In this document: one piece after another, positions 10,018 to 61,699 of the stretch
Numbering within the stretch: the first letter of the stretch is position 1
Layout of the letters: each line of letters opens with the position of its first letter
Virus record (IMG/VR): IMGVR_UViG_3300045988_150172
Length of the DNA stretch: 64,000 nt
Source of the DNA: a virus
Strand: one strand, 5' to 3'
Made by a program: the position numbers and the translations under genes
Notes under the pieces: generated by a model
Database searches by the model: none
The model's input: only the letters and a program-made list of their open reading frames with translations
Told to the model about the DNA's origin: nothing

Positions 10018-10321
10018 AATGTTTTTGGATGCCTGTCAAGGCATTGTAATGAACTGCAACAGGCAGATTCTTGTGATTAAGATTATGGATGAGTGGCGTG
10101 CAATTTTGACAAAATATGTTCGTCTTCCAAATAGAGAAGTTCGTTATTCTGAAGTTATAGGACAGGACATTACTAGAATAGTACAAAACTTTCAAAGTAA
10201 TTTTCAGGGTATGACAGAGCAGCGTCTTGAAGAACTGGTACAGTCAGTATGTATACAGACGTTCAAATTTGGAACGAGTGATTACATTTGGCTAACACAG
10301 GTGGATTTGAATAAGGGCTAA
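10004..10321 (+). CDS. Hypothetical protein (105 aa)
   Basis: Track ORF overlapping the previous gene by 14 nt. Confidence 0.5.
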   Translation: MTSNEMFLDACQGIVMNCNRQILVIKIMDEWRAILTKYVRLPNREVRYSEVIGQDITRIVQNFQSNFQGMTEQRLEELVQSVCIQTFKFGTSDYIWLTQVDLNKG

Positions 10322-10336
10322 TTGATATATAATAAC

Positions 10337-10344
10337 TACATTTG
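10337..10344 (+). promoter_or_regulatory. Candidate -7 promoter element
   Basis: TAcaTTTG lies 30 nt before the ATG at 10375. No well-spaced -33 TTTG was found. Confidence 0.4.
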
Positions 10345-10374
10345 TGTTGTATATTGTTTAATGTTTTTTGAAAA

Positions 10375-10992
10375 ATGGATACGACACAGATTGTAAATTC
10401 AGCTATTGACACAGGCAAGGCGATTGGTGATGTTGGCATGATGGCTATTACGGCCGGATTTTTTTTGGTTCTTTCTGGAATCCTTATGGTGGTGTGCTTT
10501 AAGTGGTTCATTAAACTTATTAACAGCATGATGGAGGATCAAAAGCGAACCATGGAAGAACTTCTAAAGGAAACGCGCGATCAGAATTCAAAGCTTGCAG
10601 AACTGTCAGAATGTCTTACTCCTGAAAATCAGCTAAAGACAAAAGTGATTTCGAATGCTTTCTTTGACCTAGGTATTGAAAAGGTCTGTCGCGTCATTAA
10701 AAAGGTTAGAGTGGAAAACCACATCATTGATAAGGAAGCAACAACGGCAAAGGTTCATAAATTGCTGAAAAATTTGCATGATGATAGGAACAGTAAACTG
10801 GATTCGTTTGCCTATTTAGGCAGACCTCTTTCAAGTTATACTGATGAAAAGTGGGTTGCCAAGGTTGCAGAAGTCGTTCTTAGTGAAATTTACAATGAAA
10901 ATGGAGTTAATGATGAAAGAGCCAATACGAACGTTACAGCCGTGTACGATCAGATAAAGTTGGACTTCTATAGTAATATGATGCAGAGATAA
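10375..10992 (+). CDS. Hypothetical membrane-anchored protein
   Basis: One N-terminal hydrophobic segment (MMAITAGFFLVLSGILMVVCFKWF). Confidence 0.6.
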   Translation: MDTTQIVNSAIDTGKAIGDVGMMAITAGFFLVLSGILMVVCFKWFIKLINSMMEDQKRTMEELLKETRDQNSKLAELSECLTPENQLKTKVISNAFFDLGIEKVCRVIKKVRVENHIIDKEATTAKVHKLLKNLHDDRNSKLDSFAYLGRPLSSYTDEKWVAKVAEVVLSEIYNENGVNDERANTNVTAVYDQIKLDFYSNMMQR

Positions 10993-10994
10993 TT

Positions 10995-12065
10995 ATGAGT
11001 CTTTTTGAATTTATAGCTAAATCACGTTCAGGTGTCTATAAGGATACTTCAGAAAATCGTAGACTTCATCGTGTAGGCCAGCGTTATGGTGCAATTCAAC
11101 AGATTGTTGATGAGGGGGAACTTGTTCCTGGAATGCCTAATTCGACAAAGGTGAATCTGAAGAAGTACCTTTCAGGTAAGATGAAGCACCAAGTAGATGC
11201 ATATATTAATGCACTAAAGGTTACTCCTGCTTGGAATGATATTGAGAAGCTTCGTGCTGTGACTAAAGCTTATCAGGATATGTTTAATGGCAGTTTTGAT
11301 TCCTTGTCTAAAAGCAATAGAGCTCTTTTTGTTGAAATTGTTAAAAGACTTCAGAATAGAATTGCTGAACTTGGTGATGCGAAGAAACCTGATAATGCTG
11401 TTGTTACGACAAATGTGGGCACAAAATCTAAATTTGAACAGGCGGCTGAAAAGGCTGGTTTTGAACGTGGTGAGCCGATGTCTATTGATTTGGCTGATGA
11501 TAAACATGCCAATCCTAAATATATGAAATCAGTTGATGGAAGTTTTCGTCCATATACTTGTAATTGTCAGACATGCGTTGTTGCCTATGAACTTAGACGT
11601 AGAGGTTATGATGTAGAAGCAATGGGTGCTGGTGTTCAAAAGGGTTTTATTAATGAATATCAACACTCACTTGCACTTGATAGCACAAATGCCTTTTTGG
11701 GAATATCATTTAAGCGTTCTACATTAAATTGGAATAATTCAATTAAGAGTAATACACCTAAAGGTCGTCGTGAGTATGTTGCTAATCTGTTTGATGCAAC
11801 AAAAGAAGAGGGTCGGTATTTCCTTTCCATGAAAAATAGAAGAAGATCTACTGGACACATTGTTGTAGTGGAATCCACTGAGGATGGTGGAAAACTTTTA
11901 GTTGATCCTCAATCTGGGGAAAGGATTAATCTTACTGATGGTGCTGCCGTTGATAAATACTTTTCTAGAGTAGATGTTAAGCATCTCTATAATAAAGTAT
12001 TTAGGGTTGATAATCTGGAATTTAATCCTGCCGTGTTTACCGTTGTAACTAAAAATTCTGAATAA
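10995..12065 (+). CDS. Modular effector-like protein: conserved N-terminal NRRLHRVGQ peptide plus C-terminal papain-like (Cys/His/Asp) domain
   Basis: N-terminus is MSLFEFIAKSRSGVYKDTSENRRLHRVGQRYG. C-terminus has TCNCQTCVVAYELRRRGYD .. TGHIVVVE .. LVDPQSG. The middle VNLKKYLSGKMKHQVD segment is shared with 52283..53731. Confidence 0.7.
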   Translation: MSLFEFIAKSRSGVYKDTSENRRLHRVGQRYGAIQQIVDEGELVPGMPNSTKVNLKKYLSGKMKHQVDAYINALKVTPAWNDIEKLRAVTKAYQDMFNGSFDSLSKSNRALFVEIVKRLQNRIAELGDAKKPDNAVVTTNVGTKSKFEQAAEKAGFERGEPMSIDLADDKHANPKYMKSVDGSFRPYTCNCQTCVVAYELRRRGYDVEAMGAGVQKGFINEYQHSLALDSTNAFLGISFKRSTLNWNNSIKSNTPKGRREYVANLFDATKEEGRYFLSMKNRRRSTGHIVVVESTEDGGKLLVDPQSGERINLTDGAAVDKYFSRVDVKHLYNKVFRVDNLEFNPAVFTVVTKNSE

Positions 12066-12067
12066 AA

Positions 12068-12304
12068 ATGATTGCTGAAAAGGACATATTGAAGATCTGT
12101 GAAGCAGCAGGTTGGAAAGGTGGAGAACTTCTTTATGGAGGTTTTGCCGATGGAAAGTATTACGTATCCTATGGTGGTAAGAGTGAGGATGGTGTTATTC
12201 TGCTAGTGGGAGATCCTATAATTCTCATTGTAGAAAATGGTGTGTGTAGGGTTGCTACTGATAGTGAAAGGGTTTATTTTTATGAAAATTTCGTGAAAGA
12301 TTAA
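12068..12304 (+). CDS. Small partner protein (78 aa), possible immunity/adaptor
   Basis: Starts 2 nt after the papain-like gene. Has a frameshifted paralogue at 13339..13576. Confidence 0.6.
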   Translation: MIAEKDILKICEAAGWKGGELLYGGFADGKYYVSYGGKSEDGVILLVGDPIILIVENGVCRVATDSERVYFYENFVKD

Positions 12305-12311
12305 GGAATAA

Positions 12312-12344
12312 TCCTTGGATATTTCAGAAAAGTGATTATATTTG
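12312..12344 (+). promoter_or_regulatory. Promoter/operator cassette copy P2
   Basis: TCCTTGGATATTTCAGAAA then TAtaTTTG (12337-12344), with ATG at 12363. Confidence 0.65.
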
Positions 12345-12362
12345 CGTTATAAAATTTAGGCT

Positions 12363-13091
12363 ATGGGCTTGTTTGAATACATAATTAAAGCTAAATCTGG
12401 TGTTTATAAGGATAATCCAGAGAATAGACGACTGCATAGGGCTGGATTACAATATGGTCAGAAAAAGCAGCAGGAAAGCGTTCCTGATGTAAACAAGGAG
12501 GATTTTGAACTTGCGGAAGCAAAGGTCGAGAAAATGCTTGCCGTGAAACAGAACTTTGATAATGTTTCACAGGCTGTGTGTATGGAGGTTGGTTGTATTG
12601 TCTCCCCTACCAACATTAAAAAGCCCATAAGGATTGCTCAGAAAATGGCTTCTGATAATTCTACTATTGATGATATTAAGGATGTTATGCGTAACACCTT
12701 TGTTGTTAATAGTGACGCTGATGTTGGCAAGGTTATAGAAGTCATATCCAAGCATTATAAAGTCGTTAGAGTAAAGCGTCAAATGCCTGACAAGTTCGCT
12801 GGTTATAGTGGCAATATTGTCAATGTGGAGCTTCCTAATGGTGAAATTGGTGAAATGCAGGTGAACACGCCACAAATGATATTTGGTAAGGAGGTTGAAC
12901 GTGATGCTAGAATGATTCTGGGTGATAGTCTATGGGAACGATTAAAGGCCAATGCAGGAAACCTTATCCCTGGACTTGGTCATAGGATGTATGAGGTGCT
13001 TCGGGATGATTCCATTGACGATGAAAGACTTGATATTGTTGAACGCAATAGTAGAATTTATTATGATAGAATTAGAAAGATTTCGCTATGA
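12363..13091 (+). CDS. RelA/SpoT-like nucleotidyltransferase (small alarmone synthetase / toxSAS-like) with N-terminal NRRLHRAG peptide
   Basis: N-terminus is MGLFEYIIKAKSGVYKDNPENRRLHRAGLQYG. Core has IKKPIRIAQKM, IKDVMRNTFVV, FAGYSGNIVNVELPNGEIGEMQVNTPQM and GHRMYE, matching the order of RelA_SpoT synthetase motifs. Confidence 0.7.
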   Translation: MGLFEYIIKAKSGVYKDNPENRRLHRAGLQYGQKKQQESVPDVNKEDFELAEAKVEKMLAVKQNFDNVSQAVCMEVGCIVSPTNIKKPIRIAQKMASDNSTIDDIKDVMRNTFVVNSDADVGKVIEVISKHYKVVRVKRQMPDKFAGYSGNIVNVELPNGEIGEMQVNTPQMIFGKEVERDARMILGDSLWERLKANAGNLIPGLGHRMYEVLRDDSIDDERLDIVERNSRIYYDRIRKISL

Positions 13092-13336
13092 GAACAGTAA
13101 CTAACAAGGAACTGGGGGAGTTGCTCCGTTCCAATGAAATGGTCTATCTATTAGACGACACCGATGAAATTGCATGGGGGTTTCTTGGTGAAGGAAAGAA
13201 CCGTAGAAGAGTGGTAAGCAAGGCAAAGGGAAGAGAGCCTTTCGAGCACAACCCAAAGCAGCAGAACTCCAACAGTATGATCCGTGCCTATATGAATAAG
13301 GATGTGATGACAAAGGAGGAATTTGAAAATTACTGA
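13088..13336 (+). CDS. Hypothetical protein (82 aa), possible antitoxin/partner of the RelA/SpoT-like gene
   Basis: Start overlaps the upstream stop by 4 nt (ATGA). Confidence 0.55.
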   Translation: MRTVTNKELGELLRSNEMVYLLDDTDEIAWGFLGEGKNRRRVVSKAKGREPFEHNPKQQNSNSMIRAYMNKDVMTKEEFENY

Positions 13337-13338
13337 AT

Positions 13339-13576
13339 ATGTGTGAGCGAAAGAATGACATATTAAAGGTCTGTCAATCGGCAGGTTATACAGAGGGAAA
13401 CCTCATCTATGGTGGTTTTTGTCAATGGGAAACATTATGTGTCCTACGGGCAGGATGATGCGGAGGAACTCCAATGTGTAGGTGCTCCTGTCATTCTGAT
13501 AGTAGAGAACGGTCTATGCAGAATTGCCACTGATGATGAACGAAATTACTTTTATAGATTTCTTGTGAAAGATTAA
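13339..13576 (+). pseudogene. Frameshifted paralogue of the 78-aa ORF at 12068..12304
   Basis: MCERKNDILKVCQSAGYTEGNLIYGGF, then a +1 shift, then VNGKHYVSYGQDDAEELQCVGAPVILIVENGLCRIATDDERNYFYRFLVKD. This aligns end to end with the intact copy. Length is 238 nt versus 237 nt, and the extra base lies in the T5 run at 13416-13420. Confidence 0.65.
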
Positions 13577-13619
13577 GGATGGTTATTGTATATGCGTTTC
13601 TGACAGAGTTAAAGACTAT

Positions 13620-13919
13620 ATGGAAATGAAAAATGATTTCGCGAAGTCCATTCTTGACAACCCTTATAACAGGGTTGAGGGTGGCCAGAAGATTGAATTG
13701 TTCAATGTTCTGTCCAAGTACAGGTATCAGCGTCAGAATAGGCAGTTGACCACCTATGTTGCGTATGCCGAGGATCTTGGAATAACCAAGGAGGAAGCTG
13801 TGGCTTACCAGAATTGGATAAACGACGGCAATCCGACAGGCATTGAGTCCGATGAGCAGTTTTATGAGATTCAGAAACAGGTATATGGCAAGGTTGTTAT
13901 AAAATTGTCGTGGCTTTAA
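13620..13919 (+). CDS. Hypothetical protein (99 aa)
   Basis: Track ORF with no recognisable motif. Confidence 0.5.
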   Translation: MEMKNDFAKSILDNPYNRVEGGQKIELFNVLSKYRYQRQNRQLTTYVAYAEDLGITKEEAVAYQNWINDGNPTGIESDEQFYEIQKQVYGKVVIKLSWL

Positions 13920-13937
13920 TTGATTTTTCATGGGTTA

Positions 13938-13972
13938 TTCTTTTGGAAATTCAAGAACAACGACTATATTTG
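13938..13972 (+). promoter_or_regulatory. Promoter/operator cassette copy P3 (degenerate)
   Basis: TTCTTTTGGAAATTCAAGAAC then TAtaTTTG (13965-13972). It lies inside the N-terminal extension of track ORF 13910. Confidence 0.55.
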
Positions 13973-13999
13973 CGTTGTAAAATTAAAAATGATTTTGTT

Positions 14000-14449
14000 A
14001 TGAACATGGTTGTTAAATCTAAAGATCAGTTTCGTCTGGCTACTGAAATCGCAGTTCAGGCACACAATGGGCAGGTTGATAAGAATGGAGTTCCGTATAT
14101 CTGTCATCCTATTGCTGTTGCTAATAAATGTTCACTTCCAATAGCCAAGTGTATTGCTATGCTTCATGATGTGCTGGAAGATACAAAAGTTACAGCAACA
14201 GATTTGATTGGTATGGGTGTTGACCCATATATTGTTGAATGTGTGGGGAAGCTGACACACAGAAAAGGCACTCCATATTTGGACTATATTCAAAGTATAA
14301 TTGATACAGGAATCTATAACGTTATCAGGGTGAAGTACGCTGACTTATGTGACAATCTTGATCCTGCGAGGGGTGGTTTGAACGAGCGGAAGATGCCTTT
14401 GTATCTTAAGGCTAAAAGAATGTTGGAGGAAGCGTTATGTCGTGTATAG
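14000..14449 (+). CDS. HD-domain (p)ppGpp hydrolase-like protein (small alarmone hydrolase, SpoT/Mesh1 type)
   Basis: HNGQVDKNGVPYICHPIAV, MLHDVLEDT and VKYADLCDNL match the SpoT hydrolase motifs. Start moved to ATG 14000, downstream of the promoter. Confidence 0.8.
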   Translation: MNMVVKSKDQFRLATEIAVQAHNGQVDKNGVPYICHPIAVANKCSLPIAKCIAMLHDVLEDTKVTATDLIGMGVDPYIVECVGKLTHRKGTPYLDYIQSIIDTGIYNVIRVKYADLCDNLDPARGGLNERKMPLYLKAKRMLEEALCRV

Positions 14450-16362
14450 AACTAAGAAATGAAATCCTCCGTTTGAATTCTCTGTATAGGCAAGGTAAGC
14501 CGGAGGTCAGTGATGTTGAGTACGATTCACTTGTGGAGCAGCTGAGAGCTATATCTCCTGATGATGACTTCTTCAAGTCGGGTGTTGCTGAAAAGGCAAC
14601 AGATAGAATGCAGAAGCTTCCCCTTCCTATGTTTTCTCTGGAGAAAATAAAGACGTTTAAGGAGTTTTTGACGTGGGTTGATAGGATGGCTAGGGCTGGG
14701 TGTAAAAATCTCGTAATAACGCCTAAATACGATGGAATAAGTCTTCTTGTTAGTGAACTGTCACAGGCTGCCTGGACAAGGGGTGACGGTGTGCAGGGTC
14801 AGCGAAGCGATGCACACTTTTCACGAATGAAGAATGGTGAGGTTGAACAGCCTGTGTTTGAATATACATGGGGTGAAGCCATCTGTTCTAAAAAGGATTT
14901 TGAATCCGTTAAGGGTGAGTATAAGAATGTTCGCAACATGGTTGCAGGTCTGTTCAACTCTCCTATGGGGGCTAATACGGAACAGATAGGGGCTGTGACC
15001 TTTGTAAGGTACGGTATTGATTCTGATGAAAATAAATCCGTTCAACTGGATTATCTTAATGGTCGTTACCAATACACTACACCATATAGACTGATACAGA
15101 TTGAAAACATTCTTATGTATAATGAGAATGATGTGCTGGGTATGTTGGATAGGCTTTATAGAGAATGGAAGTTGGCATATCAGATAGACGGCCTAGTGAT
15201 TGAGGTTGATGAAAACAGTGTTCGAAAGAAGTTGGGTCGCAAGCCAAATGGAAATCCTGACTATGCCGTTGCATTTAAGAGGGAGGAATGGTTGCAGTCC
15301 TATACAACAACCGTGGAAAAGGTTGAATGGAATGTTAGCAAGGATGGCTGTCTGTGTCCTGTGGTATGCGTAAAGCCTGTTGAGATGGAGGGTGCTACCG
15401 TGTCCAAGGTAACAGGATATAATGCTAAATACATTCTTGACAATCATATTGCAGGTGGTTCCACGATAGACATTATTCGTAGTGGTGACGTTATTCCAAA
15501 GCATATTAGAACGCTTGGTTATTCTACGGAAACATGTTCAAAGGAATTTCCTGCTGTCTGTCCATGCTGTGGCAAGCCTGTTCAATGGGATGCGACGCAT
15601 ACCGAGCTTGTATGTACGAATAAGAATTGTAGGCAACAGGTTATTTCCAGAATGGTGTACTTTTTCAGAACAATGGGTTGTGAGGGTTTTGATGAACCTA
15701 TCGTGCGTCGCCTGTATGACGCTGGAATGGATAGTATCCAGCTTGTCGTGGCGAGCAGGTCATTGGCATTTATGCACGTACTTGGAGAGAATAAGGGGTT
15801 GGCTGTATATAATGAGATCTGGAATAAGGTGCTTAATACAAAAAATCCTGTTGCAAGACTTATGACCGCATATAATGTGTTTGAGGGTGTTCTTGCTGAA
15901 AAGACAGCTCAAAGCATTATAGATGGAAGTGAAGCAGTTCAATATCTGTTGCGTTTCGGTATCAATCAACCTATGAGAGACAAGGATATTTTGGCAGTTC
16001 TTCACGAGGAGCTCTGTTCCATCTCTGGTGTGGGTGCTGTTACGGCTGACACATTCATTACAGGCATGAATAAGTTCTTGGATATGAGGTGTCTGTATCC
16101 CTATTACACCTGCACCCCTAAGAAAAATTTGGCTGATAACTGTATGTATGTCTGCATGACAGGTTTTAGAGATAAGGAACTGGAGAATGAGCTTATAAAA
16201 CAGGGGCACGAAGTTTTGAGCGGTGTTACGGCCAAATGTACTGTTCTTGTGGTGGCTGACTTGAATTCAACAAGCAGTAAGATGCAAAAGGCTCAGAAAA
16301 TGGGAATTCGTATTGTGGACAGAAAGACATTTGAAGATGAAATATACAGCAATAAGGGATAA
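14437..16362 (+). CDS. ligA: NAD-dependent DNA ligase
   Basis: N-terminal YRQGKPEVSDVEYDSL, adenylation motif KYDG, Cys4 finger CPCCG..CTNKNC, C-terminal BRCT-like VCMTGF. Confidence 0.9.
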   Translation: MSCIELRNEILRLNSLYRQGKPEVSDVEYDSLVEQLRAISPDDDFFKSGVAEKATDRMQKLPLPMFSLEKIKTFKEFLTWVDRMARAGCKNLVITPKYDGISLLVSELSQAAWTRGDGVQGQRSDAHFSRMKNGEVEQPVFEYTWGEAICSKKDFESVKGEYKNVRNMVAGLFNSPMGANTEQIGAVTFVRYGIDSDENKSVQLDYLNGRYQYTTPYRLIQIENILMYNENDVLGMLDRLYREWKLAYQIDGLVIEVDENSVRKKLGRKPNGNPDYAVAFKREEWLQSYTTTVEKVEWNVSKDGCLCPVVCVKPVEMEGATVSKVTGYNAKYILDNHIAGGSTIDIIRSGDVIPKHIRTLGYSTETCSKEFPAVCPCCGKPVQWDATHTELVCTNKNCRQQVISRMVYFFRTMGCEGFDEPIVRRLYDAGMDSIQLVVASRSLAFMHVLGENKGLAVYNEIWNKVLNTKNPVARLMTAYNVFEGVLAEKTAQSIIDGSEAVQYLLRFGINQPMRDKDILAVLHEELCSISGVGAVTADTFITGMNKFLDMRCLYPYYTCTPKKNLADNCMYVCMTGFRDKELENELIKQGHEVLSGVTAKCTVLVVADLNSTSSKMQKAQKMGIRIVDRKTFEDEIYSNKG

Positions 16363-18242: not shown

Positions 18243-18706
18243 ATATATACACTGATGGGAGCTGTAATGCACGAACTAGGGTTGGCGGATATGGTGTATA
18301 TGCTAGGGATGGTGAGAATGAGGTGGTGATACACCAAGGCTACACCAGCACAACAACAGCTAGGATGGAAATGAGAGCTGTGCTTCATGCAATACGCTTG
18401 GTATCCAATGAACCTCTGGACGTCTATATTCATTCTGATTCTCAATTCGTAGTAAATGCGTTTAAGGAGGGGTGGCTATCCAGATGGCGGCTGTCTAATT
18501 TTGTTGGAGTGATGAACGCCCCCATCTGGAAAGTTATTGTGCTTGAATTGGCAAAACGACCACAGGTTCATTTTCACATTAGATGGCTTCATGGACACCA
18601 GAAGGATATTCTGGATGAAGCAGTCTTTGGAAATACGGTGGCTGATGCACTGGCTGACTATAAGAATCAGGAATCATATATAAAAGATAAAGACGATAAT
18701 CTATGA
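18230..18706 (+). CDS. rnhA: Ribonuclease HI
   Basis: IDIYTDGSC, TTARMEMRAV, IHSDSQFV and GNTVADALA give the RNase H D-E-D-D pattern. Confidence 0.85.
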   Translation: MRRIDIYTDGSCNARTRVGGYGVYARDGENEVVIHQGYTSTTTARMEMRAVLHAIRLVSNEPLDVYIHSDSQFVVNAFKEGWLSRWRLSNFVGVMNAPIWKVIVLELAKRPQVHFHIRWLHGHQKDILDEAVFGNTVADALADYKNQESYIKDKDDNL

Positions 18707-52282: not shown

Positions 52283-53731
52283 ATGTTAATAGAAAAATCA
52301 AGAAGTGGTGTTTATCAGGACACATCGGAAAATAGGCGTTTACACCGTGTCGGTCAGAAGTATGGTAAGGTAGCTCAGAAGGAGGAAGATTTTGAATCAT
52401 TTGCTGATAGGTACGAAAAAGAATATCGAAAGAAACATTCTGGCTCACCAGTTAAAAATTCTGAAATAAGGTACGAAGCATCAAAGGCATGGGATAAGAT
52501 GCATTCTTCAGAAAACCGTCGTTTACATCATGTAGGTCAGAAGTATGGTGGTGCAAAGAAAGATGAAGCAAAAGTTGATTACAAGGATGTAAAAAGTGTT
52601 GCTGATTTTTTACTAGATAAATTTAACATTTATTCTAAGACAGAAAATTATTCTGAAGTTTCTCCAACTTATCTAAAGTTGAATAAAGGTGTTGAAATCC
52701 GTTTTTCTCCTAAAAAAGAATCGGAAAGGGTAGGTAAAGTATTTTATTCTTCAAGTCAATTTGACAATGAACCTGTTTTTGTAACTATTCTTGCGTCGTT
52801 TGATAAATATCCTGAATTAAAGAAATTATTTGACAAGTTAAGTTCTACTAATCTTAAAGAAGCAACTGACGGTAAAACTGCTCAATGGGGGACTTGGAAG
52901 TTTGCAATTCGAAGCAAGGAAGATTTGAAAAAATTTGGTGAAATTTATAATCAAGTTTTCAACAAGAAAAAGGCTGTTTTAGAGTCAGGTGTGAAGAAAG
53001 GTGAAATGAAACAGGTTGAGAAAGTTTCTTCAAAAGTTGAAGAACAGCCTGTTAAGGAAAATGCTGAGAAGCAGGACAAACAGATTTCACGTGTTACTTT
53101 TGCAGACGTTCCACGTTCCAGGGAAGTGAACCTGAAGAAGTACCTTACTGATTCAAGGCGTAAGCAAGTTGATCATTTGATGAAAGCAGCGGAGGTTATG
53201 CCGAAAAGCACTGTAAAACAGATGCATGATGCAGCTGTTAAGAAGTTCAATGACAATTTTGATAACCTGAAGAAATCTGAACGTGCATCAGCTCTCTATG
53301 TTATTATGAAGTATAAGGACTTTATGAATAAGGCGAAGTCTTCACCTGATAGGAATAAGGTAGCGCGTGAGGATATAGTCAAAAGAATGTCTGATGCTAA
53401 AGTGTCATTTGGTTCTATAGAGCAGATTCTTAGGGAGGGTGCTGAAAAGAAGAGTGGTGATTCAGGAGCAGTAAAGGGTGATATTGAAGTTGACTTGTCT
53501 GGTTCCTATAATGATCATGCTTGGAAATCTTCTGGTCGCAGTAAGCCGAAGAAGACGTATCAGTTGATACTTCATACGGATGCTGATGCAGGTGCATTTA
53601 ATAGAGGAACGTTGACAAGGGATCAGATTAAGGGTGTTACGCTTGTTGAATCCAATCCATGGGAGGGTTTCTATGTTAAGATTAAGGATATGGATCTTGA
53701 TGATTTGCCTGTTCGTGCGGATAGAAAGTAA
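52283..53731 (+). CDS. Modular protein (482 aa) with two NRRLH(R/H)VGQKYG peptides
   Basis: MLIEKSRSGVYQDTSENRRLHRVGQKYG (52283-52366) and SSENRRLHHVGQKYG (52505-52549). VNLKKYLTDSRRKQVD is shared with 10995..12065. C-terminal KTYQLILHTDADAGAFNRGTLTRDQIKGVTLVE. Confidence 0.7.
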   Translation: MLIEKSRSGVYQDTSENRRLHRVGQKYGKVAQKEEDFESFADRYEKEYRKKHSGSPVKNSEIRYEASKAWDKMHSSENRRLHHVGQKYGGAKKDEAKVDYKDVKSVADFLLDKFNIYSKTENYSEVSPTYLKLNKGVEIRFSPKKESERVGKVFYSSSQFDNEPVFVTILASFDKYPELKKLFDKLSSTNLKEATDGKTAQWGTWKFAIRSKEDLKKFGEIYNQVFNKKKAVLESGVKKGEMKQVEKVSSKVEEQPVKENAEKQDKQISRVTFADVPRSREVNLKKYLTDSRRKQVDHLMKAAEVMPKSTVKQMHDAAVKKFNDNFDNLKKSERASALYVIMKYKDFMNKAKSSPDRNKVAREDIVKRMSDAKVSFGSIEQILREGAEKKSGDSGAVKGDIEVDLSGSYNDHAWKSSGRSKPKKTYQLILHTDADAGAFNRGTLTRDQIKGVTLVESNPWEGFYVKIKDMDLDDLPVRADRK

Positions 53732-54524: not shown

Positions 54525-56243
54525 ATGAGTAGGAAGAAACACTTCATAAAAGGTCAGATGGGGGCTGGTTTGTCAGCTCCCATAGACCGTTTAGATGGGA
54601 TGTCCATTCAGGAATTGAGCTTGATGTCACAGGCTGCACCTCTTGCTCTCCAGAATAGACTGGAAAAGGCTCTTAGATCAGAAAATGTTGAAGAGGTGTT
54701 AAAGGCACAGGCGTTCATTGCACAGCAGGAGAAGAATGGTAAGGCTGTTAAGCCGGACATCAAATCCATCCTATGGAACCCCTCTGAAATTGGTTTTAAT
54801 GGTCGTGGATATCGTGATCCTAATAACGGCATACCGTTTACCACACTTCAGCGAATGGGTGATATCTATATCATTAAATCCATAATCAACACACGTATTG
54901 AGCAGATTCAGAATTTCTTAAGGTATAGTGATGACGACCAGAAGCCTGGATTTCAGCTTCGCTACAAGCGAGTTGTCGGTGGTGACATTAAGGAAGTATC
55001 CAAGAAGGACATGAAAGTGGTTGAGGGGCTTGTGCGTTTTCTTGAGGACGGTGGTGAGAATGATAAATGGTCTTCAGAGGATAATTTTCAGGACTTTACT
55101 CGTAAGGTCATTAAGGATTCCCTGTGTCTTGATCAGATGTGCTTTGAGGTTGTTCGCAGTCGTAATATGAAAGTGAACAAGTTTAGAGCAGTTGATGCCG
55201 CCTTAATACGACAGCTTGATACTGATGATCCACGCTATGCAAGTATGTTTGAACAGTACAGGTGGCACGGTTATCTTCCTCGTTATGCGATGGTCTGGGA
55301 TGGCCAGATTATTCGTAACCCAGCTACTGATGAGCTTGTTGTCTATTATCCATGGGAACTTGGCTACGGCATACGTAACAAGACGACCAATGTATTCAGG
55401 AACGGCTACGGCTGTTCAGAGCTGGAGACTCTTATAGAAGTTGTGACGTGGATACTGTGGGGTATGCAGTATAACGGTAATTTCTTTAAGCAGGGGTCAC
55501 AGCCAAAGGGATTCATCAATGTTAAGAATTCCAACATTGATCAAGGTACGTTGAATGAGTTCCGTCAGGACTGGAAACAGACAATGTCCAGTGTCTATAA
55601 TGCCCACAAGATTCCTGTGATACAGGGTATTGATCTTGAGTGGATAGACTTGCAGCAGTCCAATAAGGACATGGAATTTACGGAGTGGATCAAGTTTTTG
55701 TTTGTTGTGACGTGTGCTGTCTATCGTATTGATCCGTCAGAACTGGGCTTTCAGTTTCAGGATGCCGCAAGGGTGTTTGGACAGGACGGCCAGAAGGAAC
55801 GTCTTGATCATTCGCAGAAAAAGGGGCTGTTCCCGCTTCTTATCTTTTTCCAGAACATCATAAATAGATATGTTATATCTGAAATAGATGACCGCTTTGA
55901 ATTTGTGTTTACAGGCGTGGACATCAAGGATGAGTCCGCTCAGATAGAAATTGACAAGAAGAAGCTGGATGCAGGTGTTGTTTCTCTTGAGGACATGTTT
56001 CGTAAGTATTCAGGTAGGGAGCTTGACCCTGAAAAGGATACGATCCTTAATTCCATCTATCAGACGGCTCAGAGTAATAAGATGATGGGTGGTGAGGATA
56101 TGAACGGTGCTGTTGATGAGATGAACGGTGAGGGTGGAAATGGTGATTTTGACATTGCAGACATGCTGATGCAGAAATCTCAGGGAAACCCTATTCTTGG
56201 CAAGGCACTGGAATTTATTGACAATCAGTTATCGGCTAAATAA
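54525..56243 (+). CDS. Portal protein
   Basis: Size (572 aa) and position at the head of the morphogenesis module. NGYGCSELETLIEVVTWILWGMQYNGNFFKQGSQPKGFINV and YRIDPSELGF are typical of the portal core. Acidic C-terminus. Confidence 0.8.
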   Translation: MSRKKHFIKGQMGAGLSAPIDRLDGMSIQELSLMSQAAPLALQNRLEKALRSENVEEVLKAQAFIAQQEKNGKAVKPDIKSILWNPSEIGFNGRGYRDPNNGIPFTTLQRMGDIYIIKSIINTRIEQIQNFLRYSDDDQKPGFQLRYKRVVGGDIKEVSKKDMKVVEGLVRFLEDGGENDKWSSEDNFQDFTRKVIKDSLCLDQMCFEVVRSRNMKVNKFRAVDAALIRQLDTDDPRYASMFEQYRWHGYLPRYAMVWDGQIIRNPATDELVVYYPWELGYGIRNKTTNVFRNGYGCSELETLIEVVTWILWGMQYNGNFFKQGSQPKGFINVKNSNIDQGTLNEFRQDWKQTMSSVYNAHKIPVIQGIDLEWIDLQQSNKDMEFTEWIKFLFVVTCAVYRIDPSELGFQFQDAARVFGQDGQKERLDHSQKKGLFPLLIFFQNIINRYVISEIDDRFEFVFTGVDIKDESAQIEIDKKKLDAGVVSLEDMFRKYSGRELDPEKDTILNSIYQTAQSNKMMGGEDMNGAVDEMNGEGGNGDFDIADMLMQKSQGNPILGKALEFIDNQLSAK

Positions 56244-56414: not shown

Positions 56415-57362
56415 ATGCTTTTTACGGATAAGGACATACAGCAGATTTTGAAGGAAGTGGACTTGTCCACGGCCAAACTGGTTGCTCGTGTTCTTGGTCG
56501 GAGCTTTTTAACCAAATATGACATTGGCCTCCTAAAGAAGCGTGGTGTTGACTTGGTTAAGCTGATACCGAAGTTTCCAGTACATTATCAGTCCTTTCTG
56601 TTTGGTCGGCTTTCGGCCGCACTGGGCGATTCTGTTACGAGAACGATGGCTTATTCTGACCTGTTGCAGTTTCTCCCTAAAATGGGGGATTTTGTCCCGA
56701 CTGCGATGGAACTGTCCTTCTATGATGTGGCAGCGAACAAGACATACACTCATATAAAGGGGTTTGGGGATAGGTTGAAGAATGACGTGCAGAATGCTAT
56801 TTCCGCAGAGGAGATGTCCTATATTCAGACTGAACAGGCTGCAAAGGCCAATAAGGTTATTCATGATGAAATTTTGAATGGCACTGTTCAAAAGAGAACT
56901 GTTCAGAAGATAGCTTCCAACATAGCACATCAAATGGATGACTGGAATAGGGACTGGGGTCGTATTGTGGAAACGGAGTGTCAGGATGTGTTTAATCTTG
57001 GTAGAGCTCAGACATTCATACAGGACAGCACTGACCCCAAGGTTTTCTTTCAGGTGTATCCTGGAGCCTGTAAACATTGTATTCGTCTCTACCTGACGCA
57101 CGGTGTAGGTTCACAGCCAAGACTGTTTAATCTTTCTGAACTGTTGGCAAACGGTACGAACTATGGTGTGAAGTCAAAGGAGTGGAAACCGACAGTGCAT
57201 CCAGTGCACCCATATTGCCGATGTCAGATAAACAGGCTTCCAGAGGGGTATGTGTGGAATGAGGAAAATCATAGGTTTGAACCTCCTAAGAATTATGTTC
57301 GTAAGGTTCAGCGCAAGAGTAAGGTTCACATTGATATAGGTGATAAACATTATGACATATAA
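56415..57362 (+). CDS. Head morphogenesis protein, Mu F / SPP1 gp7-like
   Basis: Lies immediately after the portal. GACKHCIRLY .. VHPVHPYCRCQI resembles the MuF C..C / HPNCRC signature. Confidence 0.65.
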   Translation: MLFTDKDIQQILKEVDLSTAKLVARVLGRSFLTKYDIGLLKKRGVDLVKLIPKFPVHYQSFLFGRLSAALGDSVTRTMAYSDLLQFLPKMGDFVPTAMELSFYDVAANKTYTHIKGFGDRLKNDVQNAISAEEMSYIQTEQAAKANKVIHDEILNGTVQKRTVQKIASNIAHQMDDWNRDWGRIVETECQDVFNLGRAQTFIQDSTDPKVFFQVYPGACKHCIRLYLTHGVGSQPRLFNLSELLANGTNYGVKSKEWKPTVHPVHPYCRCQINRLPEGYVWNEENHRFEPPKNYVRKVQRKSKVHIDIGDKHYDI

Positions 57363-58698
57363 AAATTGGATAACTATGAGATTTAAGAAATGGCTTGGGA
57401 TAATGACCCCACAGGAACAACTTGAGGAATATCATGATCTTAGAAAGAGACTTGCTGAAATTGAAAACGAGGGTAAGGAGCTTGCACATCAGTTTTCCAT
57501 TCAGAAATCCATTATGGATGGTCTAGATGAAAGTGTGCCTGACTCTAAGAGGGCAGAAGTCCTGGCTCGGCATACGGATTTTATGAAAAGCCACACGAAA
57601 AGGGTAACGTCCTGTGTCAATGAGCGTGAAAAGATTTTGAAAGGTATTGCCGTGCTTGTTGAAGAATGTCAGGCGGTGCGTGATGAAATTGAAAAAAGTC
57701 GTAAGATGGACGGCTTGCGCGAACTTCGTAGGGCTGGGAAGCTGGATGAGCATACATTCTTTAATCTTGTGAAGTCCGTTGATGGCAAGCCTGTAAGATA
57801 TGCGGACATGGTTGCTATGCGGGAGTCAGACGGTAAGATTCTTATTCTGCATCGCGTTGATGATGAAATGTGCCCTACTGGGGAAGTGTGCATTCCTGGA
57901 GGTCATGTTGAGCCTGATGAGGATTTCAAGACAGCGGCCTTGCGTGAGTTTAAGGAGGAAACCAACTTGGATCCTATTGTTTCTAGAGGTATTAGGTATC
58001 TTGGTGAACATAAGGACGAGAATGCACACATTCAGTATTATCAGGTGTACGTGGATGGTGGACAGCCTGTTACTGTGGATGCGACAGAGGAGTGTTTTTC
58101 TGAATGGATTGATATAAGTGAAATTCCGTTGAAGAATTTTATTTTTGATCAGGGTAAGATTGTCCTGAATCTTATGGACAGGGTATATAGAATGGATTCT
58201 GTCGAGCCGCTTGATACTATGGTTAAGGCTGTTCAGGATGGGCGCATGTCAGTGGAGTGCTTTAAGGAGATATGCTCTGATATCGTTAAGAAAGCCCTGT
58301 CCACGGAAAATGCTTCACCTCTTATGCCTGAAAGTATGGAGGGTGATGTAAAGAAACTTACCATGCCTGTTCGTGATCCTATGTGTGGTGTGGAAACATT
58401 GCTGAAAGGTTTTGATGGTGTTGATGAGGTGCTTGTGAATGGTACTGAGACAATTAAGTTTGCAAAGCCGCTTTTTATTCGTAGTGTTTCCTATAATGAA
58501 AATCCTGAGACAAATAGGCTGGTTCAGTGTGAAGTTTCTTATATCGGTGAGGATTCTGATATGGGTAAATTGATTGATGTTTTGCGAAATAATCTTAGGA
58601 ATGGTTCTGTGAATTTTAGAATCAAAGAGGAAGAATTTACATCTGTAAATGAGAATGGTACAGATTATGTCGGTGATCCCATTTTTGCGGTTATGTAA
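57352..58698 (+). CDS. Nudix-hydrolase-domain protein within the head module
   Basis: Nudix box GGHVEPDEDFKTAALREFKEETNL (57898-57969) fits GX5EX7REUXEEXGU. The track start at 57340 is GTG, so ATG 57352 is preferred. Confidence 0.75.
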   Translation: MTYKNWITMRFKKWLGIMTPQEQLEEYHDLRKRLAEIENEGKELAHQFSIQKSIMDGLDESVPDSKRAEVLARHTDFMKSHTKRVTSCVNEREKILKGIAVLVEECQAVRDEIEKSRKMDGLRELRRAGKLDEHTFFNLVKSVDGKPVRYADMVAMRESDGKILILHRVDDEMCPTGEVCIPGGHVEPDEDFKTAALREFKEETNLDPIVSRGIRYLGEHKDENAHIQYYQVYVDGGQPVTVDATEECFSEWIDISEIPLKNFIFDQGKIVLNLMDRVYRMDSVEPLDTMVKAVQDGRMSVECFKEICSDIVKKALSTENASPLMPESMEGDVKKLTMPVRDPMCGVETLLKGFDGVDEVLVNGTETIKFAKPLFIRSVSYNENPETNRLVQCEVSYIGEDSDMGKLIDVLRNNLRNGSVNFRIKEEEFTSVNENGTDYVGDPIFAVM

Positions 58699-58738: not shown

Positions 58739-59401
58739 ATGAGTGGCGTGAATGACTTTAATTTCTTTCTTCCAGCTGATCTTGTAAAGGCTGAAGATTC
58801 AACAAGGTATCCTCGTGGCGACGAAAGACGTTACGAGAATATGGTGTTTGAAGGAATTGCTAGTGATAACAGTAAGGACTATGAGGGGGAGAGTATGGAG
58901 CCAAAGGGTTTTGATTTGAGTCATTTTTTGAAGCATGGCTTGCTAAATCTTGACCACCTTACAATTAGGGCGAAGGAACTTAAATCTAGATTTTGGATCG
59001 GTGAGCCACTGGAAGCCAAGGTTGTTGACAATAAGCTCTGGGTCAAAGGTAAGCTCTGGAAAGACAGTCCTGAAGCAAGGGCATTCTGGGATAAGTGTAT
59101 TGAGATGGCTGAAAGCGGTTCAACACGCAAGCCAGGAATGTCCATAGAAGGACGCGCCTTGGAACGTGACCCAAAGAACCCCAAGCACATTTTGAAGGCT
59201 ATTATCAATAACATAGCAATGACGTTTACACCTGTGAACTTTAATTCCTATATTGAAATTGCAAAAGGTATTCAATCACAGGATTTTTATCCTACAGACG
59301 GTTCAATTGATGTTAGTGATGATGTAATGTTGGAAGTTGTGCGTGGTGGTAGGAAGTTTATTATAAAATCGGATTTTACTACTTTGGAAGAGAGCATTTA
59401 A
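58739..59401 (+). CDS. Prohead serine protease (HK97-type)
   Basis: FEGIASDNSKDYEGESMEPKGF .. LLNLDHL .. IGEPLEAKVVDNKLWVKGKL .. KPGMSIEG follows the G.AS..D..GE.....F / H / S.G pattern of caudoviral prohead proteases. Confidence 0.7.
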   Translation: MSGVNDFNFFLPADLVKAEDSTRYPRGDERRYENMVFEGIASDNSKDYEGESMEPKGFDLSHFLKHGLLNLDHLTIRAKELKSRFWIGEPLEAKVVDNKLWVKGKLWKDSPEARAFWDKCIEMAESGSTRKPGMSIEGRALERDPKNPKHILKAIINNIAMTFTPVNFNSYIEIAKGIQSQDFYPTDGSIDVSDDVMLEVVRGGRKFIIKSDFTTLEESI

Positions 59402-59445: not shown

Positions 59446-60144
59446 ATGTTAAGATTAACTGAAAACCAGAAAAACGATGAGCTCGTAAAGTCACTGTTGG
59501 ATAGTGGCTTTTCTGAAGAGACTATTGCTGGCTGGATTAACTCTGGTGACATTACCCTGAAGTCTGATGACCCAGAGGGTGATGGCGATCCTGAAGAGGG
59601 TGGTGAAGATGACAAGAAGAAGTCAGAGGGTTGTGATGGTGATGGTAAAGAGGGTGAGGGTGCTGATCCAGAACCACCTATTGCTAAAAGCTTTGACGGT
59701 GAAGAATTGATGAAGAGTCTTGCTTCTGTACTTGATGAGCGTGATGATCTTTTGAAATCTATGGTAGCTGATTCCTTTAAGGATGTTCTTGTAAAGGTTG
59801 ACGGTCTTGCGAAGTCCATTGACAGTCTTGTTGCTAAGATTGATGCAATTGGAAATCAAGCCCCAGCATTTAAGTCAGCAGGATTGAATCGTGCTATTCT
59901 TGAGAAGTCTATTGGGGGTGGTGTGAAGGACGATAACGATAAGACTGTTCTCAGTGTTAGCCGTGATCGTGCAGTTGTTAGAGCACTGATTGAAAAGGCT
60001 ATTGATGAGGAAAAGGATGAAGCTATCCAGAAATCTCTTCGTGACGAGACCTTGAATTACCTCATTGATCCTGTGGGTGGTGCTATTGGTGAGACTGCTG
60101 CACGCTACATGTATAACAACAAAAATGTTCGTCTTGTAAAATAA
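59446..60144 (+). CDS. Scaffolding protein candidate
   Basis: Lies between protease and capsid genes. Acidic low-complexity DDPEGDGDPEEGGEDD tract and helical remainder. Confidence 0.5.
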   Translation: MLRLTENQKNDELVKSLLDSGFSEETIAGWINSGDITLKSDDPEGDGDPEEGGEDDKKKSEGCDGDGKEGEGADPEPPIAKSFDGEELMKSLASVLDERDDLLKSMVADSFKDVLVKVDGLAKSIDSLVAKIDAIGNQAPAFKSAGLNRAILEKSIGGGVKDDNDKTVLSVSRDRAVVRALIEKAIDEEKDEAIQKSLRDETLNYLIDPVGGAIGETAARYMYNNKNVRLVK

Positions 60145-60181: not shown

Positions 60182-61699
60182 ATGGATTTGTTCAACTACA
60201 ATGGCAATGAAAATGCCAATCCGCTTGAGTCTATGTCCTCAGAGGAGATTCTCAAGGCGATGGAAGCTGGGCTGCTGACTGGAATGCAGTATGACAACCA
60301 GCTTAACAACGGTGGCGGTTTGAAACCAGAATCTTTGGATGGAGTTCTCAAGAATCTGGAGAATAGGCTTGACCAGCTTGTTTTCTGGAATGAACTCGGA
60401 AGACAGAGAATCGAAAATACCGTACATCAGTACAATCAGCTTTATAAGTATGGTCAGGAGGTGGGTATCTTCAATGTTGAGGGTGAAACTCCTACCGAAA
60501 CAGATTCCATCTACAGACGTAAGTCAGTAGTTGTGAAGTTCACAGGTGTTACTGGACAGGTAACTCATCCGGGAATGATTGTGAAGACAGTTGTAGGTTC
60601 TCTCTACACCAAGGAGGTTGAGAACAAGACAATTCTTCTTCAGACAATTCTTGACAAGAAAGTCATTGATGCTGATTCTAACAAAGTTCCTGAGGAGTTT
60701 GATGGTGTGTTTGCACAGCACGTTACAGGTATCAACGACATTACAGGCGGTCTTCTTGGTAAGACATCAGAGCAGGTTCTTGATGCGTATTTCGGTGATG
60801 TAGCCGTTATCAATGCAAATGGTTCAGTTCTTACTGATGCTCTTGTTGAGGATGCTGCACAGGCTGTTGTTAATGACCGAAACGGTATCATTGATCGTAT
60901 CGTATCATCTCCAGTTGTGTTCAACAACTATGTTAAACTCTTCCATGAGTCAAAACGTGTGATTGTTGGAATGCAGGGTGGTGTTGTAGGTGCTACGATG
61001 GGTCAGTCCGTTAATGACATTACAACTCAGTTTGGTAAGGTCGCCATCAAGGCTGATAAATACTTTGACTGGAATGCTCCAGTGAAGCTCGGTCGCGGTA
61101 AGACTTCTGATAAGGCTCCAAATGCTCCAGTTAGAGATGGTGCAGCAGCCGTTTCAGTTGCTGTTGATGCAAAGGGTCAGTTCGGTACAATGCACGCTGG
61201 AAACTACTTCTATGCAGTGGCAGCTGTTAATAGATACGGAGAGTCAGAGCTTGTACTTCTTAATGACGATGCACAGGCAGTAGGTGCAACACAGTCCGTA
61301 GCATTGAAGTTTACAGGTGCTGTTTCATCTGCATATCCTGAAACCTGCTATGTTATCTATCGTACTGAAGCCAATCCAGCAGATAAGAATGTTGCTGACT
61401 TCTATCCTATCTTTAAGGTGTCTAAGACTGAACTTATAGCAGGATGGGACGGTGCAAAAGCTGGTTCGGTTCATGATCGTAACAGATGGATTGCTGGAAC
61501 GAAGTCTGCTCTTGTTTACTTCAACGGTTCTGAGATGCTTGAGTATCTTGAACTTGGTGGTACGATGAAGCTTGACTATGCTATTGTCGGTCCTAGAAGA
61601 TCATTCTCAGTGCTGAATTACGGTACTCCGGTACTTTACCAGCCTGGAAAAATTGCTCGTATTGTCAATATTGGTAAGATCGGTCTTCCTACCCTTTAA
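60182..61699 (+). CDS. Major capsid protein candidate
   Basis: 505-aa ORF after protease and scaffold, followed by the strongest terminator in the module. Confidence 0.7.
   Translation: MDLFNYNGNENANPLESMSSEEILKAMEAGLLTGMQYDNQLNNGGGLKPESLDGVLKNLENRLDQLVFWNELGRQRIENTVHQYNQLYKYGQEVGIFNVEGETPTETDSIYRRKSVVVKFTGVTGQVTHPGMIVKTVVGSLYTKEVENKTILLQTILDKKVIDADSNKVPEEFDGVFAQHVTGINDITGGLLGKTSEQVLDAYFGDVAVINANGSVLTDALVEDAAQAVVNDRNGIIDRIVSSPVVFNNYVKLFHESKRVIVGMQGGVVGATMGQSVNDITTQFGKVAIKADKYFDWNAPVKLGRGKTSDKAPNAPVRDGAAAVSVAVDAKGQFGTMHAGNYFYAVAAVNRYGESELVLLNDDAQAVGATQSVALKFTGAVSSAYPETCYVIYRTEANPADKNVADFYPIFKVSKTELIAGWDGAKAGSVHDRNRWIAGTKSALVYFNGSEMLEYLELGGTMKLDYAIVGPRRSFSVLNYGTPVLYQPGKIARIVNIGKIGLPTL

Follow-up and report, generated by a model that had tools for sequence, protein, structure and literature searches.

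A polymorphic effector-immunity locus of a large phage and the short leader peptide shared by its effectors

Among the MuF polymorphic toxins, the three-gene logic of a synthetase toxin, a small immunity protein and a (p)ppApp hydrolase, known as Apk2, BcTis1 and Aph1, has been validated experimentally (PMC10083569, PMC12226406), and the arrangement of synthetase toxin, Tis1 (IapK) and Aph1 has been characterised in prophages of Bacteroides caccae, Streptococcus pneumoniae, Mannheimia and Pasteurella. In the Apk2 and Aph1 papers the virion carriage and the injection of phage toxins are stated to be untested, and the delivery of phage polymorphic toxins is an acknowledged open question. Phage polyvalent proteins have been predicted to be packaged in the capsid and injected (Iyer, Burroughs, Anand, de Souza, Aravind 2017; PMC5512222), and polymorphic toxin systems are treated by Zhang et al. 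2012 (PMC3482391). Here we analyse a locus that makes the question of delivery directly testable, namely positions 10,995 to 14,449 of a stretch of 64,000 nucleotides (nt) of viral DNA from the IMG/VR record IMGVR_UViG_3300045988_150172, this whole stretch being called the window in the following.

It is very probable, judging from sequence comparison and predicted structures, that positions 10995-14449 form a polymorphic effector-immunity locus with two live cassettes and the debris of earlier ones. This judgement is a joint one, covering all the enzyme and immunity assignments together with the history of cassette swapping. The effectors of both cassettes begin with one and the same leader peptide of about 30 residues, G.Y.D...NRRL.RVGQ.YG, which is called the tag below. 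From its distribution among phage proteins the tag would be a virion-loading signal, a reading to which we give slightly better than an even chance. For comparison, 70 related loci were gathered from viral contigs with the peptide as bait.

Two effector cassettes and a hydrolase

The first cassette consists of two genes.

10995..12065, + strand: tagged papain-fold effector (Pfam Gln_amidase, 'papain fold toxin 1'), 356 amino acids (aa), from Pfam and fold matches
12068..12304, + strand: candidate immunity protein, 78 aa, starting 2 nt after the 356-aa open reading frame (ORF)

The 356-aa protein is laid out as the tag (aa 1-32, with the core at 11031..11090), a helical middle module (aa ~45-130) and a toxin domain (aa ~145-356). 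It matches Pfam PF15644 (Gln_amidase) with E=1.2e-11 and 46.1 bits, the gathering cutoff being 24.1, and its AlphaFold2 (AF2) model has a mean predicted local distance difference test score (pLDDT) of 82.9, with the tag region of low confidence. With this model Foldseek finds papain-like toxins and effectors at a probability of 0.96-1.0, and the fold neighbours, among them the papain-like toxin/immunity pair 9L5U, CdiA-CT 8SSM, GtgE, AvrPphB and the Josephin-type clippases, span proteases, clippases and amidases. The residues N190, C191, Q192, C194, H288, D304 and Q306 are invariant in 46 diverse homologues. Thus, the papain-like fold that the original prediction had read from the letters alone is borne out both by the Pfam match above the cutoff and by the Foldseek check on the predicted structure, and the Cys/His/Asp pattern pointed out there is found as the invariant C191/C194, H288 and D304. 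The 356-aa protein is, with the high joint confidence given above, a predicted member of the papain-fold-toxin-1 polymorphic toxins with its Cys/His/Asp set. As a separate observation, the helical middle module (VNLKKYL..QVD...FN.NFD...KS.RA), which is confidently predicted, is present also at aa 280-350 of a 482-aa protein described below and in nearly all slot-B proteins of the relatives, and is not present in the effector of the second cassette.

The 78-aa gene, present 2 nt behind the 356-aa ORF as had been predicted, stands behind the Gln_amidase gene in all slot-A relatives, with 75-99% identity. A small ORF with the same core (VG.PI..LI..G..R.ATD.E) stands behind a tagged Gln_amidase protein of 608 aa in the head-module slot of other relatives. 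Because the partner accompanies the Gln_amidase toxin in both slots, the toxin and its partner move as a unit. The 78-aa protein has no Pfam match, and a sequence search of the PDB gave nothing; from its gene order it is presumably the immunity protein of the papain-fold toxin.

The second cassette and the gene that follows at some distance are as below.

12363..13091, + strand: tagged toxin of the Tas1/Apk type, a predicted adenosine 3'-pyrophosphokinase ((p)ppApp synthetase), 242 aa, from phmmer against the PDB
13088..13336, + strand: Tis1/IapK-like putative immunity protein, by structure, 82 aa, with an ATGA overlap (4 nt) with the toxin gene, implying translational coupling
14000..14449, + strand: predicted (p)ppApp-specific HD pyrophosphohydrolase of the Aph1 type, 149 aa, from phmmer against the PDB

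The 242-aa protein is composed of the tag (aa 1-32, with the core at 12399..12458), a linker and a synthetase domain (aa 57-239). In the phmmer search it matches Tas1 (6OX6_A) with E=8.3e-18, aa 57-239 against 255-435, and its synthetase motifs IKKPIRIAQKM, DVMRNT, GYSGN, GEMQVN and GHRMYE align with those of Tas1, the variants RNT, GEMQVN and GHRMYE being of the Tas1 type. The RelA/SpoT synthetase that had been predicted here is therefore a homologue of a RelA/SpoT-fold (p)ppApp synthetase toxin. The Pfam RelA_SpoT model gives E=2.5e-5 and 25 bits, just under its cutoff of 27, and the C-terminal part matches phrog_7625 ('head morphogenesis'). No MuF domain is found in the 242-aa or the 356-aa protein by Pfam, PHROG or NCBIfam, and residues 1-56 of the former hold the peptide and the linker only. 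From homology and from the linkage to Tis1-like and Aph1-like genes it is predicted that the 242-aa protein makes (p)ppApp from ATP/ADP and that it is toxic.

For the 82-aa protein, with an AF2 model of pLDDT 81.5, the top Foldseek match among 350,542 PDB chains is 6OX6_B, which is Tis1 complexed with Tas1. The template modelling score (TM) is 0.60/0.64, the root-mean-square deviation is 2.6 A over 77 columns and the probability is 0.93, while the next matches have a TM of ~0.3. There is no sequence-level match in the PDB. The Tis1 assignment is made because of the TM-score, the full-length coverage, the rank and the gene context. The protein is kept at 82-99% identity in 76 clusters, and its gene stands behind the Apk gene also in the related loci L003 and L006. 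It is thus, on the predicted structure and with the same high joint confidence, a Tis1-like immunity protein and a putative binder of the toxin. The earlier proposal that the small partners are immunity genes agrees with this Tis1-like fold and with the synteny of the 78-aa gene with the papain toxin in every related locus.

The HD protein matches Aph1 (7SMG, '(p)ppApp hydrolase') with E=5.4e-21 over the full length, aa 12-143 against 9-142, and phrog_990 with E=6e-39. The Aph signature residues are D24, R96, D116, R119, K133 and Y134, of which D24 and R119 have been found experimentally to set the adenosine specificity (PMC10083569). The HD protein keeps four of the six (D24, D116, R119 and Y134), with R96 replaced by Ser and K133 by Leu, and the numbering of the 7SMG alignment reproduces all six published positions in Aph1. 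The original prediction was right in seeing an alarmone hydrolase here; the generic SpoT/Mesh1-type small alarmone hydrolase (SAH) that it named has to be replaced by the Aph1 type, which is predicted to be specific for (p)ppApp. Cassette 2 and the HD gene together are therefore very probably, from sequence matches and the modelled structure, an Apk/Tas1 - Tis1(IapK) - Aph1 triad, which is already known biology. The original prediction knew of no described system with this combination; the synthetase toxin, small immunity protein and (p)ppApp hydrolase have, however, been published together as Apk2/BcTis1/Aph1 (PMC10083569, PMC12226406). All close slot-A relatives have the HD gene, whether they carry an Apk gene or not. 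Because it is present in L001, L002 and L004, which lack the synthetase, it is not simply the antidote of the synthetase cassette, as had been supposed, and it may serve another purpose.

The leader peptide

The N-termini of the 356-aa and 242-aa proteins are identical at 23 of 36 residues. The shared N-terminal peptide that had been noticed in the two proteins is thus present in both of them; it is not restricted to them, since by a pattern search the window contains six copies, at 11031, 12399, 49968, 50364, 52307 and ~52490, which are only 55-72% identical in DNA. Four of these copies lie in two ORFs directly upstream of the portal gene.

49677..52208, + strand: highly charged head-module protein, 843 aa, with two internal tags (49968..50027, 50364..50423), from the pattern search
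52283..53731, + strand: head-module protein, 482 aa, with an N-terminal tag (52307..52366) and a partial copy (~52490..52549), from the pattern search

The N-terminal ~130 aa of the 843-aa protein, together with the tag, are conserved in ~50 related loci, in which the gene for them comes first in the slot preceding the portal gene, and the protein has no Pfam or PHROG match. The slot of the 482-aa protein is hypervariable in the relatives, with proteins of 199-724 aa, which in a dozen cases have a Gln_amidase domain at the end.

With a 42-position profile built from the six copies, an exhaustive search of 1.84 billion proteins gave 989 representative clusters at E<=1e-3, of which 341 reach E<=1e-10. 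Chance falls far short of accounting for the shared peptide. A word-indexed search with the same profile gave only N-terminal fragments of 30-77 aa, and the architectures were taken from the exhaustive representative search; single-linkage clustering of the tagged proteins merged all of them via shared middle modules, and the heads were classified by Pfam surveys instead. Across the ~1000 clusters the residues G, Y, N, R, R, G and Y of the peptide are invariant, which in the 242-aa protein are G13, Y15, N21, R22, R26, G28 and Y31. Of the top 147 representatives, 73 have the motif at their very N-terminus, 44 have it internally and 30 have it in arrays of at least four copies. N-terminally tagged heads include Gln_amidase, Zeta toxin, RelA_SpoT, ADP-ribosyltransferases, AAA_33 and many without a family, and canonical polyvalent proteins that contain NUDIX, Kinase-PolyVal and ART-PolyVal domains have the tag internally. 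No model of Pfam, PHROG or NCBIfam covers the tag, NCBIfam recognises neither of the two toxins, and a literature search for the motif string gave nothing relevant.

Purifying selection acts on the protein sequence of the tag, as in 1,326 pairs of its 20 core codons the nonsynonymous divergence pN is 0.19 versus a synonymous divergence pS of 0.85, with the synonymous sites saturated. Its AF2 prediction, of low confidence, is a disordered segment.

The tag is linked to head genes. In ~52 of the 70 related viral loci a tagged ORF adjoins the portal gene or MuF/head genes, and in distant phages and in a Sulfuricurvum metagenome-assembled genome such an ORF, coding for a short charged protein, lies right beside the MuF gene. 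Other phages have the Gln_amidase head covalently joined to MuF, minor capsid protein 2, an XkdF-type protease or VG15, and the tag is present in 0 of 24 such capsid-domain Gln_amidase fusions versus 23 of 35 homologues without such a domain, in a count uncorrected for phylogeny. The Apk head has the same duality, being joined to MuF in the literature (MuF-Apk2) and to the peptide here.

It could be supposed instead, following the original prediction of phage effectors kept in check by the partner or the hydrolase and used for host takeover, superinfection exclusion or counter-defence, that the two enzymes are intracellular, made after infection and never packaged, with the peptide as a regulatory, localisation or partner-binding segment that acts inside the infected cell. 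That would fit with the position of the locus among early-type replication and recombination genes and with a promoter class shared with the helicase and other non-structural operons (see below). Toxin-immunity pairs and SAH-type antidotes are also typical of toxin-antitoxin modules of the toxSAS kind (PMC7229694), and an HD gene kept without the synthetase would suit counter-defence against (p)ppApp-producing systems of the host. However, in divergent phages the peptide goes overwhelmingly with portal and MuF genes, it is present in polyvalent proteins, and it is mutually exclusive with the capsid-domain fusions of the same toxin head. Moreover, the same Gln_amidase toxin stands in the head module of many relatives, and an orphan immunity gene in bacteria, described below, makes better sense if cells without the phage immunity gene are exposed to the toxin. 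The purely intracellular reading is therefore unlikely in our judgement, as the widespread leader linked to head modules points to virion loading and injection instead.

Three further observations concern the motif itself. Firstly, the tag was considered as a possible prohead-protease site of the T4/phiKZ type; it has no invariant acidic residue, the Glu before NRR being Lys in one of the copies in the window. Secondly, the Gln_amidase homologues P0306, P0307, P0309, P0318 and P0326 have neither the tag nor a capsid domain and carry other N-terminal motifs (NPYHGADGRF; HWKTINGxxVHxDxNGxYDGGAGGKFNG), which may be leader peptides of the same kind. Thirdly, in animal Ser/Thr (TKL-like) kinases the kinase domain is preceded by a tandem array of 8-13 copies of (T)Y.DN..NR.LGRVG...GS, with examples in snail and starfish (P0020, Biomphalaria pfeifferi KAK0061970.1; P0033, Acanthaster planci XP_022104385.1; P0027; and ~25 more). 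What is common to the animal and phage proteins might be a motif of homotypic or multivalent assembly.

Cassette turnover, promoters and genomic surroundings

Six loci share the context of the window, that is, a homologue of a 205-aa protein, the Gln_amidase toxin with its 78-aa partner, a variable position, the HD gene and a ligase gene. The variable position holds the Apk and 82-aa genes in L003 and L006, a tagged Zeta toxin of 419 aa in L001 and L004, and nothing in L002. The window and L001 are 95% identical over 10300-12445, then diverge, and are again 97% identical from 13609, inside the 3' end of the Zeta-toxin gene. The left breakpoint, 12445, falls precisely where the leader-coding part of the second cassette ends. 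The 205-aa protein (10375..10992; phrog_19698, E=4e-76), which has an N-terminal transmembrane segment, always precedes the effector slot in the relatives.

Two remnants lie between the second cassette and the HD gene.

13339..13576, + strand: frameshifted paralogue of the 78-aa gene, the two frames jointly giving a full 78-aa homologue
13620..13919, + strand: orphan 3' fragment of a tagged Zeta-toxin gene, 99 codons, 98% identical to the last 99 residues of the 419-aa Zeta toxin of L001

The L001 protein (L001:7368-8627) matches Pfam Zeta_toxin with E=2e-15. Because the DNA of the window is collinear with that of L001 again from 13609 on, the 99-aa ORF is the stump of a Zeta toxin displaced by the Apk cassette, a relic and neither a gene of its own nor a partner gene; the stump is an open frame that keeps its own ATG. 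The paralogue, with 69% nucleotide identity to the intact 78-aa gene, is broken by one extra T in a T5 run (~13413-13417). The duplicated partner gene of the original prediction is thus a decaying orphan immunity gene left by cassette turnover; the ORFs, the overlap and the frameshift described there are all in place. We thus find at the locus one leader, interchangeable heads, a mapped swap, an orphan toxin stump and an orphan immunity gene, by which polymorphic toxin loci are recognised.

The position of the breakpoint also bears on whether the leader has a peptide function at all, as it could be no more than DNA homology for cassette recombination or the remnant of an ancestral gene start. 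The swap with L001 does end at 12445, where the leader-coding segment ends, and polymorphic toxin loci are described as swapping their C-terminal modules via conserved upstream sequence (PMC3482391). However, the values of pN and pS given above already disfavour such an origin, the copies in the window, with the DNA identities stated, are too divergent to be efficient homology arms, seven residues are invariant across ~1000 clusters, and copies that are internal or multiple cannot be gene starts. A leader of this kind is, we believe, highly improbable.

The promoters that had been placed near 12312 and upstream of the HD gene turn out to be recurring elements. TAnnTTTG boxes, the typical -7 boxes of Bacteroidota, are found in the intergenic regions, and the elements are as follows.

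12313..12348, + strand: promoter element (CCTTGGATATTTCAGA ... TTATATTTG) upstream of cassette 2, a copy of the phage promoter class with a Bacteroidota-type -7 box
13964..13976, + strand: Bacteroidota-type -7 box (CTATATTTGCGTT) upstream of the HD gene, the surrounding 45 nt resembling the upstream regions of other cassettes in the relatives
3125, 12313, 30730, 38422, 44638, 47633 (- strand), 49561 and 52230: copies of the promoter class, from the sequence pattern

The conserved promoter class spans ~55 nt, has the form CCTTGGATATTCnAGAAA(n4)ATTACCTTTG, often followed by GTAATCATTAAATCA, and heads at least 8 operons; the extended element has 9 copies in the window versus 0.86 expected. Copies stand also upstream of the 843-aa and 482-aa head-module ORFs. 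The operons so headed probably belong to a single temporal class, the element being recognised by a factor of the phage or of the host. We considered the promoter of cassette 2 as a sign of late co-expression with the head genes but do not count it as evidence, the element also preceding the helicase and other operons.

Parts of the second cassette are found on bacterial chromosomes as well. In L073-L080 an intact orphan Tis1-like gene, with 91% aa identity to the 82-aa protein, is present with no Apk toxin. It lies on a segment of ~400 nt that is 89.6% identical in nucleotides to positions 13085-13486 of the window (e.g. L073:4998-5392), and the segment also holds the decayed start of the 78-aa paralogue, in the same order as in the window. 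The neighbouring genes are Fe-ADH, flavodoxin, LolA, GT2 glycosyltransferase and MMPL, on contigs of up to 210 kb from many samples. It was also seen that the orphan copy adjoins an island with GIY-YIG/T5orf172-like and SLFN_AlbA_2 genes, and that one of the contigs is NCBI GCA_037259975.1. As far as sequence goes, the bacterial orphan gene lends support to the view that the toxin matters in cells, and its capture by the host suggests that the toxin is a real selective force in gut Bacteroidota.

Such an orphan gene resembles acquired immunity to the toxins of competitors, and the nearest characterised systems (MuF-Apk2, Bxa) are encoded by prophages and have been discussed in that sense (PMC5576092, PMC10083569, PMC11699363). 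It could accordingly be thought that lysogens release particles or toxins that kill non-immune neighbours, with the immunity genes protecting the lysogen. However, the ORFs examined, which cover 64 kb of a genome of ~100 kb, yielded neither an integrase nor a lysogeny gene, the phage has a full replication set of the type of virulent phages, and the motif is present in only 2 of ~185,000 species-representative bacterial genomes versus 70 viral contigs. We thus regard interbacterial competition as improbable.

The window is part of a large phage genome, in which DNA polymerase, SbcCD, a UvsX-like recombinase, RuvC, NAD ligase, several helicases and GroEL are encoded, and the phage is probably a large, virulent phage of the gut that infects Bacteroidota, with Bacteroides or Prevotella as the expected host. 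A nucleotide search of the GenBank phages with positions 10300-14500 gave a sole match of 150 nt at 71%, with no annotated or close relative. The GroEL-type chaperonin gene is at 20573..22201 (phrog_5725, E=4e-138), and two paralogous Dda-like helicases (phrog_1967) are at 18703..20157 and 38451..39977. The 3' end of the window is the head module, with the following genes.

54525..56243, + strand: portal (phrog_12 with PF04860)
56415..57362, + strand: MuF/SPP1 gp7-like minor head protein, 315 aa (phrog_115, weak PF04233; TIGR01641 weak)
57340..58698, + strand: NUDIX protein, 452 aa (PF00293)
58739..59401, + strand: prohead protease (phrog_1028)
60182..61699, + strand: major capsid protein of the SU10 type (phrog_752 with PF17236)

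A candidate scaffold gene lies at 59446..60144. The MuF-like minor head gene overlaps the start of the 452-aa NUDIX gene. This head module looks like a polyvalent protein split into separate genes, because NUDIX, kinase or ART domains and the tag share one polypeptide elsewhere (P0087, P0102).

The proposed explanation and the known systems

With the observed enzyme and immunity families, cassette swap, tag distribution, linkage to head genes and selection on the tag, we propose, with moderate confidence, that the locus is a polymorphic toxin locus in which the peptide has MuF's role. In the proposed explanation the peptide, as a flexible tag, would bring the protein that bears it to the portal, to MuF or to the procapsid interior, leading to packaging and to ejection with the DNA into the next cell, so that the tag would play the part of the MuF domain as a trafficking module, and the leader DNA would also set the left limit of the exchanged cassettes. 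In the cell that makes the particles, the small binders together with the hydrolase would shield the development of the phage as the toxins build up. In the new host, the pre-made injected enzymes would act before any phage gene is expressed, with the synthetase bringing about a burst of conversion of ATP/ADP to (p)ppApp; the newly made Tis1-like protein and Aph1 would then stop the action of the synthetase and restore the adenylate pool.

A farther-reaching form of this proposal, which we put forward tentatively and would not expect to hold as a whole, is that the ~30-residue peptide is a portable and widely used cargo-loading signal of tailed-phage heads that replaces the covalent MuF fusion. 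Whatever enzyme bears the peptide would then be packaged and injected, and a virulent phage would keep a swappable arsenal of pre-made toxins, including a converter of ATP to (p)ppApp that is reversible by Aph1. Because some head proteins have several copies of the motif and animal kinases have it in tandem arrays, loading would in this form proceed by homotypic or multivalent assembly and not by a capsid-specific pocket.

Several points weigh against the proposed explanation. The cassettes sit in the replication/recombination module, between the SbcCD/RuvC and the ligase/helicase genes and outside the head module, and the promoter class of cassette 2, heading the helicase and other non-structural operons too, gives no mark of late co-expression with head proteins. 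The arrays of the animal kinases are the strongest matches of the phage-derived profile, and a role in capsid loading leaves them unexplained; the opposition of tag and capsid-domain fusion, for its part, is a count in which phylogeny is left uncorrected. The HD gene persists without the synthetase, the Zeta-toxin cassettes of the relatives have no obvious adjacent (epsilon-like) immunity gene, and the Foldseek E-value of the Tis1 match is weak, 0.47. Finally, the packaging and injection of the tagged proteins, their timing and what the papain-fold enzyme acts on are what we infer.

It appears that the peptide leader as a constant module, its breadth and its exclusivity with capsid-domain fusions have not been described before, and the same appears to be true of the second effector slot in the replication region and of the host-captured immunity gene. 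With respect to delivery, the locus is a minimal version, having a tag of 30 residues versus a MuF of 300 residues, small single-domain toxins, identifiable immunity proteins and dozens of cassette variants. If the tag is a loading signal, it would explain a family of ~1000 unannotated protein clusters, it would offer a means of bringing proteins of choice into phage particles, and it would mean that virulent gut phages inject an ATP-depleting alarmone synthetase with built-in reversal.

As in MuF-Apk2/BcTis1/Aph1, the locus has a phage-borne toxin domain of the Tas1 type followed by a predicted Tis1-fold binder and a predicted Aph1-type HD hydrolase, and as in the MuF-Apk2 family the toxin C-terminus is variable and small immunity ORFs lie downstream. 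It differs from MuF-Apk2 in that a peptide of ~30 residues stands in place of the MuF domain, MuF being a separate 315-aa protein 43 kb away, in that the phage looks virulent and not temperate, with the cassette in the replication module, and in that the hydrolase gene is set off by cassette debris, has its own promoter and is kept in relatives without the toxin. The Tas1-Tis1 (Apk1) pair of Pseudomonas aeruginosa (6OX6) has a homologous catalytic domain with the motif variants RNT, E.QVN and GH..YE, and Tis1 resembles the 82-aa putative immunity protein in fold and size, with an identity of only 16%; Tas1, however, has a PAAR domain and is delivered by the type VI secretion system, in contrast to the phage context and the peptide leader here. 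With the polyvalent proteins the locus shares the repertoire of RelA/SpoT, NUDIX, ART, kinase and papain-like domains and the linkage to the portal-terminase head module, and the tag itself is embedded in the polyvalent proteins P0087, P0102 and P0044. While a polyvalent protein is one giant multi-domain chain, here there are separate small genes, each with the peptide and an immunity partner.

In the capsid targeting sequence of the T4 internal proteins and Alt, and in the cargo-loading peptides of encapsulins, a short terminal peptide brings unrelated cargo into an HK97-fold shell. In T4 this cargo acts in the next host, and the prohead protease cuts the signal at a defined site. The tag has no sequence similarity to these peptides and no evident protease site, and its loading is only putative. 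Like the polymorphic toxins, finally, the locus has a constant N-terminal module with a putative trafficking role, variable heads, downstream and orphan immunity genes and displaced 3' fragments of toxin genes, whereas it differs from the polymorphic toxins in general in having a linear peptide of ~30 residues in place of a folded domain and a phage of the virulent type in place of a secretion system.

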